From IMG/VR virus record IMGVR_UViG_3300021426_000006, positions 1 through 64,000 of that record: a stretch of 64,000 nucleotides of DNA; one strand, 5' to 3'. The notes under the pieces were generated by a model that saw only the letters and a program-made list of their open reading frames with translations, was not told the origin of the DNA and made no database searches. The stretch comes from a virus (taxonomy: Duplodnaviria > Caudoviricetes). How positions within the stretch are numbered: position 1 is the stretch's first letter; every line of letters starts with the position of its first letter. The position numbers were made by a program, and so were the translations under genes. This document shows positions 50,576-58,900 of this stretch, one piece after another.

Positions 50576-51145
50576 TTATGAATTATAAACAGAATTTAAA
50601 CGATTCATCCAACCGGTTAACCATTTTTTCTGTGATGGGTTTCTAGAAACAATTCCGTCGAAAAACTATTTTCTAGCGTCGTAGAGCTTTTTCTTTAACC
50701 CGTCTGCACTGTTTATAGCGGTGATTGTTTTAGGGCCAACAGAACCGTCCTAAGTAGCTCCTACGAGGCCTTGTATCTTTTTTATCATGCCTACACCAGA
50801 ATGCCATACCCAATCCGCTATCATATTTGCTACTGTTTGATCCATAATCTAATCTCCGCATACTTTATTCCAGTACATAGTATACACTATATCTTTCCAT
50901 ACAGAGTACTGTATATTTTTTAGATCATTAACTGTTGGAGAGGGAAGCCCCTTTTTTGTACAATATGCTTTATATGTGTTTAGTGTAACACCAACCATTG
51001 TAGCACCTCCAGTATCAGCAGGATCATTTGACCATCCTGTTTTCTTTGCACGGTTAAATGCTGCTTCTAATGATTCTCCTGATTTAACAGTAGTACTTGC
51101 TTCCCATCTTAAAAGAATAGGAATAAATTTATCAATTATTGCCAT
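50576..51145 (-). CDS. Endolysin, glycoside hydrolase family 108 with a C-terminal PG-binding region (~189 aa, 3 TAG)
   Basis: LRWEA, NDPADTGGATMVGVT, YW, DWVWHSG, DGSVGPKT and GWMNRL motifs; TAG at 50849, 50750 and 50666; TAA at 50576. Confidence 0.85.
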
Positions 51146-53386: not shown

Positions 53387-53719
53387 TTAAGCTGCAAGAG
53401 CAGAGGTAATCTGCAAGATACCGTTAAACCTGTCATTAAATACAGTAATTACACCAGTACCGGTGATGTCTGCAGCAGTTACGGGAGTCCCATTAAAAAA
53501 GGTGAGTGCACGGGTGACGCCGTTGAGCGTGATAGATACTGGTAATGTACCAGTAGTATCAGCTGGGATGGCGTCAGCAATGCGAACCGTAAAATACCCG
53601 ACAGGCTATATTCTGCGGAATCCAAGAGCGAACTCCACAGCAGTGTCGTTTACAGTTACATTGGTCGTGCTCAGATAAGGAACTCCATTTACATTAGTAG
53701 TTACATTAAAGCACCCCAT
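53387..53719 (-). CDS. Hypothetical beta-rich protein (~110 aa, one TAG); absent from the ORF track
   Basis: MGCFNVTTNVNGVPYLSTTNVTV...RI*PVGYFTVRIADAIP...NGILQITSALAA-TAA. Confidence 0.75.
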
Positions 53720-53732
53720 ATTACATCCTCAA

Positions 53733-54656
53733 TTAAAATGAAACATTGTTACCCCAGAAACCATTTCCGAAGCCGTTAAAACCACCATAGAAACCACCGC
53801 TCACATATGGAGTTGTGTTAACTGCGGTCAACTGCGGCCACTGTACAGGTACAGTATTTGGCTGAGCAGATTTGATTGCTACGAGCTGGTTCTGTATATC
53901 GTTAAATCTCTCATTGAGTAAAATAGTCTGTCTTTCGTTATTAGCGTTAGAACGAAGAAGAGCATTATCAGCAGTAAGAGAATCAATTTTATTCTGCAGC
54001 TCGCGTTTCTCAAGATCGCAGAACTTGTCGTTGATCATGACACTTTGAGCATTGATAGCTTCAGTTATGTCTCGAGCATTCCGCTCGGCCTGATTAGACA
54101 GAGTATTAGTCTACTGACACATACCAAGCTGATCAGCAGCCTGATTTGCAGCCATTTGAGACTGAATAGTATTTGTCTACTGAGCAATAGCAAGACGGTT
54201 CTCACAGCAGCACTGACAGATCTGAGAAGCTATTGAAGCATTTCCAGCCTGTATTGCATTCTGTAATTGTAAACCGCTCATGCCTACTTGAGTACCAACA
54301 GAGTTGATAGCGTTGTTCAATGTGAATATACCATTCTGAACAGTATTGACTTCGGTGTTAAGCAGATTTGCGATGCTGTTAATAGAATCGCGGTTGCCTT
54401 GAATAGCATTCATCAGAAGCTCACGACCTGTGTCGTTATTCATCTGATTGGACAGGAAACCTGCACCGTTGCCAAAACCGCCACCAAAACCATTGTTGCC
54501 ATAAGCACCACCCCAGATAAGCCAGAGGAACAGGATCCATATCCAGTTACCGTTTCCACCAAATCCACCGTTGTTGTTTAAGGCTAGCAGCAAATTAGGA
54601 TCAATGCTGCTGTTGTTTCCGTACTCAGGAAACATCATAATTTTTGAATTTTCCAT
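53733..54656 (-). CDS. Gly-rich, single-TM, coiled-coil protein with a CQCCC motif (~307 aa, 2 TAG)
   Basis: Fragments at 54177 and 53733 are in one frame; GGFGGNGNWIWILFLWLIWGG; ICQCCCENRLAIAQ*TN; MCP-like codon bias. Confidence 0.82.
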
Positions 54657-54818
54657 AATTTAGTTTTAAATGATTAATGATTAATAAACATCTTTCGATG
54701 CTGTTGATTACAAAGGAAGGTTATCTTTAACCAACCTTTGCTCTCAACACCAAAACACTTTTTAACGTGGGTGTTACCACATAATCATCATCTTTAATCA
54801 TTAAAACTAATAGGAATT
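54647..54818 (-). promoter_or_regulatory. Predicted multibranch 5' leader structure that base-pairs over the start codon at 54656
   Basis: 54647-54683 is an imperfect inverted repeat of 54782-54818. It encloses hairpins at about 54689-54700, 54711-54740 and 54767-54780. Confidence 0.55.
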
Positions 54819-54820
54819 AG

Positions 54821-54866
54821 TAGCGACCTCGGTGGAATCGAACCACCTTATATACCATAGAGGCCT
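54821..54866 (-). ncRNA. Anticodon-less tRNA-like element (acceptor stem + mini D-loop + canonical T-arm)
   Basis: Minus strand reads A-GGCCTC-TATGGTATA-TAA-GGTGG-TTCGATT-CCACC-GAGGTC-GCTA: a perfect TPsiC arm stacked on a 6-bp acceptor-like stem, with no anticodon arm and no CCA. Confidence 0.6.
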
Positions 54867-54897
54867 CCCCATTTTAGACAGTCGGGGATCTGTTATA

Positions 54898-55986
54898 TTA
54901 ATTCAATAACGTATCTCCAGTATTGGAATTTATCTTTTCGACAAATTGTGTATCCAATTGCGACATTGGCAATATTCTGGATGACACACTACTCCAACCA
55001 GTATCGCTTGTATAAACACTAACCGCAGAGTCTGGCACATATATGTTTATCTTGCTTAGCACGTTTCCTCCAAGTGATCCTTGAGTAAACGAAAACGTTG
55101 TCATGTCGTCAGCGTCGCTTTCATCCGTAAACACCATAGGTGGAGTTGCGCAGTTTATTACAAGATTGACCGTAGACGGATATTCGTTGGCATTACCATC
55201 AAACATTTTGTAGTGTATATACTAGATGTCGCTCCCGATATAAATAAGATTTAAATTCGGAACGTGTCTCACTGTGTATTGCAGCATATATACTACTTTT
55301 GGCAAATATATTTCTCTTGCGCCATTGTCGCACAAACACGCGTGATTAGCTCGTGTCACGTTTGGACATACTATCTTCTATAAGTTAGGAGTTGTATCTT
55401 CATTTGCTCTACTATCACCAGCTGTTTCTTTATCCGCACTAGCATTTCCAAATATACTTCCAGACTAGTTTTTATATTTTCTACGCGAAAGTTCAGTAAG
55501 ATTTCCTGTATTCAAAAAGGTCAAACTACCAGATCGTATAAATCTTCGGGCAATATTTCTTAAATTTGGAAAAACGCTGAGGTCTATCGTAGTTATAGAA
55601 TCGTTTATAAATATATTATGGAAGTCCTATGCTCTCTAATTCTAATTTGTACTATACAACCAATAATCCGTGATAATACTTGCAGAATCAAATGTCACTA
55701 CGTTGTTTGACTACTAGACACCGTAGTTTTGTAAAAACGATGCGACACGGCCTTCAAGAATAGAGTCTTCAAAATACATAAGCCTTGTTGTAGCAGATAT
55801 ATAAAGATGGCCTTCAAACCTACCTGTTAAATAATTATATTGGTGATCATAAATTTGGTCTACCTATAACCGTCCTTCAAGTATCACATTTTCACTATCC
55901 AATGCAAGATTGTATAAACGTTCTATTATATTATACGAAACCGCTTCCGTACTGCCGGTATTTTGCTATATTTTTAATGTTGTCAT
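54898..55986 (-). CDS. Leucine-rich-repeat (BspA/LRR_5-like) protein, candidate receptor-binding protein (~362 aa, many TAG)
   Basis: ATG at 55986 (MTTLKI*QNTG...), 2 nt after the upstream TAA; IDLSVFPNLRNI repeat; C-terminal CATPPMV...IYVPDSAVSVY...GWS cap typical of BspA-like proteins. Confidence 0.7.
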
Positions 55987-55988
55987 GT

Positions 55989-58900
55989 TTAAGAAACGTT
56001 TAAAATTTTACCGAACATCGCAAACGTCTTTGTATTAGAAATATTCTAAATATCAAGGTGCGATATATTTGAAGAATTTTGTACAGATGTATTGTTTGGT
56101 TGTAACACTACAGGACTGTTTAATATCACTTTGGTAGGAGTTCCTAACTACAAATTAGTTATTTTTGAAGCCGTAGGCAATATTACATTCAACGATGTAT
56201 TTTGTACATTAACGTCTGTTATTTCAGTATTTGTAGATAAATCTATATCTCCAGAAAGTCCTGTACATCCGCTTAAAGATAGAACTTCAAGATTTGGTAT
56301 ATTTGTAAATACAAATTCTCCGTTTGTATTACGTAGCGAAGTACAGTTAGTAATACTAATACTTGTGATGTTTGGGATATAATTTAAAAATGAACTGCCT
56401 GTATACATAATTAGGGTTCTAAGCGTCTCTCCTGAATTTTCAGTTATCTATAGCTCGCCCGTTAAAGAAAGCAAATCTAATCTATAAACGCTATTTCCTA
56501 TAGAATGAGACGACTTGGCGTCTATAATTCTATACAATACTGGGTTACTTATTGTGTCAAACAAAGCAGTTGAATCGTTGATTATAATCAAAGATTTACT
56601 TACTTCTATAGTTTTGTTAGAAGCAAAAACCCATTTGATGTTAATAGCATACTCTATTATACTATCATCTATTGGAAAGTTATTAGAAGCCCAAGTAGCA
56701 TTTATAGAACCGTCGTCGTTGCTTTGAACGTCTATTGTATTGTCCCAATTAGAAGTAGTTATCGTATTTGTAGACTTATTGTATTGTATGTGGCCTCCTG
56801 TAGAATTTTCTATCGTGTACAAAATGTTGGAAACAGTAGCCGTAGTATCCTGGTTGGTGGTACAGTATAATTTGGCTGACGCACCAGAGCCTACAAATGC
56901 AATAAAGTTACCGCTAGACTTTACGTAATTTCCATTTAGAGAAGTATACGCCACAGATAAATCTGTTGGATATGTAACACCAATAATATGTATAGTAACA
57001 TATTGGTCTTGTACACCTAAAGTAACATGCACCCTTACGTCGTAGTTGTGACCTACTTGTGATTCCCTAGTCTGTAAATAAGCAAATCCATCACCAGATA
57101 GCTCTGGGTTTATTATTGAACAACCTTGATATATAATTCTTCTAGTGGGATCTGTTGGTGTATCCATAGTCCACGTAAACTCATTGTTTATTTCGTCAGA
57201 CAGCATGAAAGTTGTAGCGTTTAATGATGCACGACCACCTTCGTTTAAGTATATTTCACCGTCCTGTATATAAGCATCTCCGCCTACAATAATTTGCGTG
57301 TATTCTAACTCATGGTCTACAACAAGTCCGGACGAGTTTCTATCAAATACCGAATCACCAAACCACTCTTTTATCTTACCGAGTTGAAGTGTAGTCAATG
57401 GAGTACCGTCTTCATTTTTCAATAGAATATAACCCCTAAGATTATGATTCATTTGAGCAATTATTTCAAGCTCTTCATACGTAAGCATGTTTTCTGAACC
57501 TAATGAGTTGTCCCATCGTATCTTGTCGGCGTTGAATGCATACGAACTTAAATTTACATTGGCTTGCGCTGTTATCGATGCAATCCAGTTTTTTATAAAT
57601 TTAATCGAATTTGCATTTTGACAACTTATACCATTCATTGTAACAGAAGTCAAATTAGTAGGAATAGACTGCATTTTCTAAATCGTAGACGCAGATCCGT
57701 TCGACGAAGTAATTTCCCAAAAACTAAGGTCTTCCCACGTAGAATCGTTCATGTACAGAGTGCTAACGCTAGACGGTAATTCAACATTGTTAAACGTGTT
57801 TCCAGAAGAAGAACTATAGAAATCAGACAGCCCAGAACCCATCGCGTATACATTCTTTAAAGAAGAGATGTTGTTGTCGTGTATAAAGTCTCTGGTGCCA
57901 GTTTGATTTATTTGGCCCCTGATGTTAAGCGTTTGCAAGTTCTCGAATGCTTCTTTTTGTCCACGAATAGCACCTCCTAGAGATCCTCTTACCGTAGTGT
58001 ATGTATCTGTAGACACCCCGGTGAGTTTTGTTCCTATGTTTATCTCTTTTAAAGGAGAACCCAAAACTTTAGAATAAACACCAGTAAAATCTACGGCATC
58101 GAGTCCAGCAGCTATTTCACTAAGATCTACTGTGTCCATAAAATTCGCACCATATATATGGAACGGGTTTTTCGTATTTAGTACTGGAGCTACATAACTT
58201 AACGGATTGTTCGGACTTACCTGTTCGGTGTGTATTGTTTTATTATCCTTTTGTATTACTATATAAGTAGATTTATTTGGGATAATATTTATTTTTGCGT
58301 TAGACCCTTCCGATACGTTGGCAGTAATATATATAGAGTGATTCTTATAATCTCCGCAGAACCACTTTGCGTCATAATAATCCATTGATGTACTTAACCA
58401 CCAATGTCTATGAGTCATTCTAGCTCCCTGCAACCATCTGAGCCATTCATTATCTGTACCTCTGGACTGTATATATTTAAAATCTCCACTCTTATTGTAC
58501 ATTGTTTCACACCAGGCATTCGCATAGTTTTCATCAAACATTTCAGAAACATTGTTGTACGAAAGTCCTGCTTCATGCAATGCGTCTGCTGTCTTTGGAA
58601 CTATTGTGTTGGCCCAATATGGCCACGCTTCTAAAGCATCCCATAGCCAATTGCTTGTGACAATATTACCATTACTATCAGCACTCCTACCAGATATTGC
58701 ATATGTAGTAATACTACCAGGGAGTTTGGTATTTCTATCGATAGGTGGATTATAGGCAATACCGCCATCGTTTTTATTACCAAGAGCAATATCCATATCC
58801 CACGGTTCATAATGGAAATGAACACCATCGTATGTCTTTATTTGAGCGTTTCTTTCCATCGAGTCAACAAGACCGAAACGTAAAACGAAGATGTAATATG

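Follow-up and report, generated by a model that had tools for sequence, protein, structure and literature searches.

A conserved four-helix leader RNA overlapping the ribosome-binding region of a cassette-heading gene in the phage record IMGVR_UViG_3300021426_000006

In the phage lambda N leader and at the R sites of T7 early mRNA, cutting by RNase III allows or enhances translation and separates neighbouring messages. The Escherichia coli rpoS leader carries a long-range inhibitory stem which is opened by the small RNAs DsrA, RprA and ArcZ, and the translational operator of T4 gene 32 consists of a 5' pseudoknot followed by an A/U-rich leader. Here we describe a leader on the minus strand of the virus record IMGVR_UViG_3300021426_000006, analysed over positions 1 to 64,000 (hereafter the window), located in the 241-nucleotide (nt) gap between the 54898-55986 gene and the 53733-54656 gene. 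This leader contains a conserved RNA domain of about 150 nt with four helices (P1 to P4, Table 1), and is a structured, covariation-supported RNA overlapping the ribosome-binding region of the downstream gene.

The domain resembles the lambda N and T7 leaders in being a phage mRNA leader with a long imperfect duplex, P1, that occludes the initiation region. It differs from them in its setting, a Bacteroidota host without Shine-Dalgarno pairing, in that cleavage is here proposed by analogy, and in its conserved three-helix pseudoknotted core, which the lambda N and T7 sites lack. With the rpoS leader it shares a long-range helix of the 5' untranslated region whose 3' strand is the ribosome-binding region, together with a presumed default-off state and the need for an opener acting in trans, but no candidate anti-stem RNA was found in the phage genome, and the two are unrelated in size, in sequence and in inner architecture. 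With T4 gene 32 the leader has in common a small H-type pseudoknot placed before an A/U-rich initiation region, and the relatives of this gene that lack the domain show exactly that layout; here, by contrast, the A/U stretch is paired in P1, and the downstream gene encodes a membrane and coiled-coil protein rather than a single-strand-binding protein. Finally, P2 has the H-type topology and A-rich loop 3 of the preQ1-I and SAM-II riboswitches, from which the domain is set apart by the lack of an Rfam match at permissive thresholds, by the position of P2 inside a much larger domain and by a P1 too long for a ligand-tipped switch. Rfam searches (Rfam 15) gave no match at gathering thresholds in the window, chance-level matches only at E <= 10 over 54560-54980, and no match at E <= 5 in six homologous loci; no description of this leader RNA was found in the literature. 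The RNA family, its architecture and its Shine-Dalgarno-less host setting are uncatalogued, while the kind of device, a leader helix masking an initiation region, is a known one.

A first-pass annotation of the window had reported an imperfect inverted repeat closing three hairpins and containing the start codon. Arms and hairpins are present at the coordinates it gave, and the CAT at 54654-54656 is indeed a minus-strand ATG, the N-terminus being kept from that methionine in all relatives. Folding of 54640-54825 (-) with RNAfold yielded a structure in which P1 closes the three hairpins at -53.7 kcal/mol, compared with a mean of -28.5 kcal/mol (standard deviation 3.7) for dinucleotide shuffles (z = -6.82, equalled by 0 of 200 shuffles); these and all other energies given here are nearest-neighbour predictions. 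A fold including the adjacent transfer RNA (tRNA)-like element gave z = -5.57, and the antisense fold was 9 kcal/mol worse than the sense fold. The folded domain spans 54660-54810 (-). P1 is made of 10 + 7 + 3 + 5 pairs (25 bp) and four outer pairs (UUCC/GGAA). Its arms alone pair at -19.8 to -20.7 kcal/mol, the genome-wide mean for the 5' arm against 60-nt windows being -8.8 kcal/mol (standard deviation 2.7); among about 10,300 genome windows only a handful pair as well as the true partner, and no second copy of either arm was found in the 103-kb genome.

Homologous leaders were searched for in loci of the same gene family, using about 160 fetched loci for leader BLAST and about 170 for the covariance-model search. 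BLAST gave partial matches in a few metagenome contigs, and the six homologous leaders are 69-74% identical where aligned. The covariance model R1, which was built from the window sequence alone with its structure and was used in all model searches, recovered the loci L110, L085, L089, L147 and L093 and the 5'-truncated L087 at 19-79 bits, and nothing further in the approximately 170 loci. On the phage genome it found one copy, and the window scored 190.6 bits in the sense and 35.8 bits in the antisense orientation. When folded singly, the homologs adopt the same architecture, with an A/U-rich P1 of 15-25 bp, P2, P3 and P4; the 3x3 internal loop of P3 (RAG opposite URA) is conserved and P4 has a GAAA loop in 4 of 7 copies. 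No copy has an open frame through the leader, and no leader peptide is conserved, the short open reading frames (ORFs) that are present keeping neither frame nor peptide.

Covariation, by which the first-pass annotation had proposed to judge the stem, was counted on the six homologs, excluding the window even though the structure was derived from it. Changes on both sides were found at 31 of 53 pairs, a count reached in 0 of 500 shuffles, and 89.5% of the cells are paired across the six homologs (69.0 +/- 2.1% in shuffles); structures slid by 1-3 columns were only 31-47% paired. The two parts of P1 show double changes at 7 of 8 and 4 of 17 pairs, with 87.5% and 95.8% of cells paired respectively; an example is AAUGAUU/AAUCAUU, which becomes AACGAUU/AAUCGUU in L110, and the arms of L093 are entirely different. 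Double changes affect 12 of 18 pairs in P3 and 4 of 5 in P4, which is 100% paired across homologs. Pairing by G.U is confined to the sense strand. Since the alignment had been fitted to the model, it leans towards the structure; that this bias explains the signal is argued against by the slid controls and by the folds obtained independently from single sequences. Alignments made with MAFFT gave inconsistent structures for the domain and were left out of the counts.

These data bear on the view that the locus is a DNA-level feature (operator dyads TTAATNATTAA, a cruciform, an origin or an insertion resembling a miniature inverted-repeat transposable element), an RNA thermometer or a chance pairing. 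The arm cores are near-palindromic (TTAATGATTAA/TTAATCATTAA) and the sequence is A/T-rich, as such explanations would have it, but compensatory changes that include one-strand-only G.U pairs, and the gap between the antisense and sense scores, oppose a DNA-level or fortuitous origin, and this whole group is made hardly credible by the single copy, the z of -6.8 and a P1 predicted to stay intact to 60-70 C.

Table 1. Coordinates of the leader domain, its neighbouring RNA elements and the downstream gene in the window
Feature	Position	Strand	Description
Small H-type pseudoknot, 5' side of the tRNA-like element, outside the domain	54866..54893	-	S1 ACAG/CUGU, S2 CCCCG/UGGGG, loop 3 CUAAAA
Anticodon-less tRNA-like minihelix	54823..54865	-	acceptor-like stem GGCCUC/GAGGUC, 12-nt GG loop, T arm GGUGG-UUCGAUU-CCACC
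P1 outer extension, 5' side UUCC	54813..54816	-	pairs with GGAA at 54651-54654 (G of AUG and codon 2)
P1 5' arm	54785..54810	-	10 + 7 + 3 + 5 paired bases, with a 1x1 loop and bulges between
P2 pseudoknot-capable hairpin	54754..54780	-	S1 GUGG/CCAC, S2 AACAC/GUGUU, loop 3 GUUAAAAA
P3 two-part hairpin	54702..54749	-	lower helix GUUGA/UCAAC, conserved 3x3 internal loop RAG/URA, upper helices
P4 short hairpin GCAUC-GAAA-GAUGU	54688..54701	-	directly abuts the P1 3' strand
P1 3' arm, A/U-rich	54660..54687	-	-4 to -31 before AUG; weak inner G.U pairs extend to about -38
Start codon AUG, A at -3	54654..54656	-	N-terminus conserved from this Met in all relatives
Putatively regulated gene	53733..54656	-	307 aa, Gly/Asn-rich membrane and coiled-coil protein, phrog_16490, two in-frame TAG (= Gln)

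The stem had been described as burying the start codon. What P1 pairs is the initiation region from -4 to -38; the AUG itself lies only at the edge of the helix, its G alone being paired in the minimum free energy fold. P1 ends 0-8 nt from the AUG in 6/6 homologs, and the AUG of the window, L110 and L147 sits within outer pairs; the codon is fully paired in L110 and stands 6-8 nt clear of P1 in L085 and L093. In the window, positions -30 to -3 pair with a partner 60 nt or more distant with a probability of 0.82, a value unsurpassed among about 90 relatives, the majority of which stay under 0.3. Opening of -18 to +12 in the window is predicted to cost 12.5-13.8 kcal/mol with P1 and 5.9-6.3 kcal/mol without the 5' arm; the cost is 7.4-15.6 kcal/mol in the other copies of the domain and 3-8 kcal/mol (mostly 3-6) in relatives without it. 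In the rumen Bacteroidota Prevotella bryantii, structures of -5.2 and -11.1 kcal/mol beside the start codon lowered protein to 12% and 0.7% respectively with mRNA constant, and a -9 kcal/mol hairpin at -21 was harmless (PMC3155529). Initiation in Flavobacterium/Bacteroidota is tuned by mRNA structure and by an A at -3 (PMC6847099), a base that the window gene has.

The translational switch proposed in the first-pass annotation thus stands as a conserved RNA helix occluding the initiation region, for which a role in translation is the best reading. Its suggestion of a thermosensor is not supported, and neither is an obligatory coupling to the neighbouring tRNA mimic; its options of processing and of protein binding correspond to the triggers favoured here. 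We favour, with a probability of about one half, a default-off translational mask opened by RNase III-like processing or by a factor. From the predicted folds we infer that the leader most likely represses its first gene, keeping it untranslated until the helix is cut or opened. The domain would be part of the transcript of the gene that opens a late cassette and would act in cis, the 3' strand of P1 being the A/U-rich stretch that Shine-Dalgarno-less Bacteroidota ribosomes would need single-stranded. Because this landing stretch is paired in P1, the gene would be held translationally off by default, and since the 3' arm is made before the AUG, no kinetic window would be left. The stability of P1 (about -20 kcal/mol over 15-25 bp) and its predicted persistence to 60-70 C make spontaneous opening and thermosensing implausible, and the conservation of a gene placed behind a helix too stable to breathe implies an opener. 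As to temperature, the predicted long-range pairing of -35 to -4 goes from 0.76 at 30 C to 0.74 at 42 C and 0.67 at 60 C. This disagrees with a thermosensor, whose helix would melt at about 30-42 C, and an RNA thermometer of the fourU or ROSE-like kind was rejected in silico.

The first-choice trigger would be an RNase III-type endonuclease that cuts the long A/U duplex and frees the initiation region; the same cut would also free the inner domain and detach the message from what lies upstream, namely the fibre-like genes and the tRNA-like element. By analogy, a long imperfect A/U duplex beside a tRNA-like signal at a gene-module boundary looks most like an RNase III-type processing site. As a second choice, a phage or host factor might bind the conserved pseudoknot and junction core, whose conservation suggests that something recognises the interior of the domain, either a factor that opens or stabilises the gate or a partner of an excised core with a function of its own. 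No RNA complementary to either arm that could act as an anti-stem in trans emerged from the genome search, which gave short A/T-rich chance matches only.

Several observations weigh against a default-off mask of this kind. RNase III needs about two helical turns of duplex (about 20 bp or more), and P1 has 25 bp (+4) in the window, about 23 in L110, about 19-20 in L089, 18 in L147, 17 in L085 and 15 (+5) in L093, so that the 15-19 bp of some homologs are borderline; an RNase III site alone, moreover, needs no conserved inner core. The predicted opening cost in L085 is only 7.4 kcal/mol. Close relatives (e.g. L084, 92% protein identity) have no domain and an open initiation region, so that the mask would be accessory. 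The seven known copies, finally, make up about 4% of the loci fetched for the gene family, and all come from rumen-type metagenome contigs or from this phage, a small and wholly uncultured sample.

The distribution of the domain was examined further. Exact-pattern scans of IMG/VR with the central hairpin and the conserved P1 arms gave 0 matches, the domain occurring in IMG/VR in this record only, and neither species-representative genomes nor a further model search over 58 loci added a member. On a quick, poorly resolved tree of the first 150 residues of the protein, the domain requires at least two gains or losses; this patchy distribution fits an exchange of leader cassettes, as far as can be judged from these sequences. 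It also lends some weight to the unlikely view that the domain is a stand-alone stable non-coding RNA, in which P1 would be a processing stalk (like the stems flanking rRNA), the excised core of about 125 nt (P2-P4) would act in trans, e.g. as a protein-binding or decoy RNA, and the proximity of the AUG would be a by-product of a compact genome. An inner core conserved beyond the needs of a mask would agree with this, as would the accumulation of RNA modules in this intergenic region among relatives (two kinds of tRNA-like element, free pseudoknots, other cassettes). On the other hand, no matter what stands upstream, the 3' arm always ends at a distance of 0-8 nt from the AUG, and the gene family is always the same; in three homologs the outer pairs extend as far as the AUG and codons 2-4; no second genome copy exists; and the same geometry recurs in unrelated cassettes. 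Two such cassettes, not homologous to the domain, were found in the closest protein clade (L001/L086 and L003/L098/L088/L044), each with a 15-30-bp A/U helix abutting or including the AUG; because two unrelated cassettes share this geometry, a role at the initiation region was ranked above an incidental location. These cassettes lie 100-135 nt before the ATG and are unmatched by R1, and the L003 type contains a GUAG/CUAC + CCCGA/UCGGG pseudoknot and a G+C-rich hairpin.

Within the domain, the element annotated as a simple GTGG/CCAC hairpin is P2. Its pairing holds, GUG/CAC of the first stem (S1) being invariant in 6/6 full copies and accompanied by one further pair that covaries (G-C in the window and U-A in L085), but a simple hairpin does not account for a second stem (S2) that covaries in 6/6 full copies (AACAC/GUGUU, ACGCU/AGCGU, UAGGCA/UGCCUA, CGCU/AGCG, AUGCU/AGCAU and AUACUU/AAGUAU) and that competes with S1 or coexists with it as a pseudoknot. 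S2 is joined across an A-rich strand containing UAAA. With its S1-S2-S1'-S2' order and the 0-1 nt that separate S2 from S1', the arrangement is that of a classical H-type fold. P2 is thus likely a small H-type pseudoknot, a grade that reflects the support of S1 by invariance and one extra covarying pair.

A small pseudoknot is also the commonest element in the leaders of this gene, being present in 67 of 89 distinct upstream regions (8 of 89 shuffles). Its S1 reads ACAG/CUGU or, in a compensatory variant, ACAC/GUGU; S2 covaries, and loop 3 is CUAAAA or AUAAC. Some copies form the 5' part of the tRNA-like element and others stand free, ending 31-47 nt before the AUG; besides P2, the window carries one at 54866-54893. 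Free copies (e.g. ACAG-UCCA-A-CUGU-AUAAC-UGGA) occur in the domain-less loci L009, L013, L018, L019, L022, L028-L030, L034, L038, L117 and others, where the A/U-rich leader behind them is unstructured and contains the words ACUAA/AUUAAC repeatedly. A further pseudoknot candidate lies between the tRNA-like element and P1 in L089 (about 147 nt before the ATG; AGUG/CACU + UGGCAA/UUGCUA) and in L110 (about 149 nt; UAGG/CCUA + CGCCC/GGGUG).

This small pseudoknot with an A-rich loop 3, as the one element common to most versions of the leader, and the invariant unpaired or short elements of the domain (GAU..UGUG, GUG/CAC, loop 3 UAAAA, the RAG/URA loop) could point to an effector-responsive switch, in which a metabolite or a protein (the product of the cassette or a late phage factor) would bind the pseudoknot and four-way junction and alter the stability of P1, in the manner of a riboswitch or of a translational operator such as those of T4 gene 32 and the r-protein leaders. 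We regard this as decidedly unlikely, given that no Rfam riboswitch or leader match was obtained at E = 5-10 in seven loci, that P1 is much longer and more stable than a riboswitch P1, and that neither an alternative (anti-P1) fold nor a trans RNA complementary to the arms was found.

The tRNA-like element at 54823-54893 (-) is also present in L006, L009, L013 and 20 further loci, with a 7-bp acceptor-like stem, a GG loop of 9-12 nt and a 3' tail ACAA, and without an anticodon arm. Counted over 24 distinct copies, pairing covers 95.2% of cells and 14 of 21 pairs are compensatory (0 of 500 shuffles); all 24 keep S1 of the pseudoknot 100% paired, and in 3 of them a G-C pair is replaced by C-G. 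Neither program used calls it, ARAGORN finding no tRNA in the window and Rfam giving no tRNA match, and by its modelled shape it looks like a minimal RNase P/Z substrate. The 5' side of P1 had been placed a few nt after the 3' end of this mimic, and the distance is small as described, the mimic stopping 7 nt before the outer P1 pairs. The mimic precedes the domain in the window, L089, L110 and L147. In L085 and L093, 2 of the 6 full copies, none is present within the available upstream sequence, the preceding ORF ending 30-45 nt before P1, and about 40% of the domain-less relatives have a mimic. Coupling is therefore not a property of the family; to judge by these loci, the tRNA-like element is an independent module, and a coupling of domain and mimic in this phage is possible. 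A second tRNA-like type occurs upstream of the ATG in L005, L007, L013, L019, L022, L028-L030, L037 and L084; it has an acceptor stem, a D arm and a T arm, but its anticodon region has given way to an insert of 30-55 nt that begins with GGGAGACAGGC, and ARAGORN calls only two of these, as odd 88-89-nt tRNAs.

Cutting at the tRNA-like element by RNase P/Z would leave a 5' end about 7 nt before P1, and the helix could then serve as a stabiliser or punctuation of the message by blocking 5'-end-dependent decay. The minihelix is a conserved RNA of the kind that RNase P accepts, ending 7 nt before the outer P1 pairs, and there is no sense-strand terminator between the upstream gene and the leader, both of which would agree with such a function. 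It is nevertheless improbable, as two homologs have no tRNA-like element and a stabiliser has no need to pair -4 to -38, a pairing which according to the Prevotella data would block translation (PMC3155529).

A device acting on transcription, either a put-like processive antiterminator or an attenuator with P4 and a U-rich tract as weak terminator, was also considered. The position at the head of a long late operon and the U-rich tract following P4 in all copies would suit it, but P4 is G+C-poor, with 4-6 bp and 2-3 G-C pairs, no intrinsic terminator was called on the minus strand over 53500-56500, and the constant pairing of the pre-AUG region would go unexplained, so that we hold it to be very improbable. 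No conserved Bacteroidota TAnnTTTG promoter was seen inside the domain when the sequences were read by eye. In the distant relatives L041, L043, L047-L054 and L056-L059, a -7 promoter motif of the Bacteroidota type, TAnnTTTG (e.g. TAACTTTG), lies 60-80 nt before the ATG and is followed by a short hairpin, which suggests that in those phages the gene heads a transcription unit of the host polymerase.

The 307-aa gene is the first of a six-gene cassette, after which come an endolysin homolog (50579-51145) and packaging genes; the upstream neighbour (54898-55986) encodes 362 aa with weak similarity to BspA-type leucine-rich repeats. Both TAGs of the 307-aa gene stand in the context Q-TAG-TNT. Owing to these in-frame TAGs, standard-code gene callers give a 159-aa fragment, and many database homologs of the protein are such shortened calls of 125-280 aa. 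Homologs of the Gly-rich membrane protein with 41-46% identity were found in Bacteroidales (L165, L167, L170 (Parabacteroides), L173 and L169), some on large chromosomal scaffolds: L173 is Alistipes putredinis DSM 17216 (1.2-Mb scaffold) and L169 a Rikenellaceae (819-kb contig). Their sequences suggest prophage copies of the cassette and thereby a clue to host range.

The complete virus record has 103,222 bp with direct terminal repeats; the window is its first 64 kb, and almost every gene in it lies on the minus strand. With TAG read as a sense codon, the long open frames add up to 20,386 codons instead of 11,345, one frame reaching 5,978 codons, and the closest phage records (INPHARED, blastn) are uncultured crAss-like phages from pig faeces, matched in a coding part only. 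The gain in open frames and the nearest records together identify the phage, on sequence grounds, as a TAG-recoded crAss-like phage; its relatives are mainly from rumen metagenomes. Past the window, on the other arm of the genome at about 79.1-99.6 kb (+), ARAGORN calls tRNA-Met, Glu, Gln(UUG) and Trp and a permuted 'tmRNA*' at 82330-82723; additional T-arm motifs lie at 82398, 82699 and 93999 but receive no tRNA call, and no tRNA with a CUA anticodon is called by ARAGORN anywhere in the genome.

crAss-like phages are among the most abundant viruses of the gut and rumen. To our knowledge, very little is known about the timing of late genes in these phages, or about the control of messages in hosts that do without Shine-Dalgarno pairing. 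The leader described here heads a conserved cassette just before the lysis and packaging genes. Beyond the default-off mask itself, we tentatively consider that the leader may belong to a series of RNA cassettes that can replace one another and have at their centre a small H-type pseudoknot whose loop is A-rich. In TAG-recoded crAss-like phages of hosts without Shine-Dalgarno pairing, such cassettes would serve as programmable translational gates for the late (pre-lysis/packaging) cassette: the pseudoknot would dock a phage or host factor, and the A/U helix would be the gate, opened by that factor or by RNase III and timed to the availability of a suppressor tRNA. The presence in the same intergenic slot of several unrelated start-masking cassettes, a recurrent small pseudoknot and a tRNA-like minihelix points to modular control at the RNA level in these phages.

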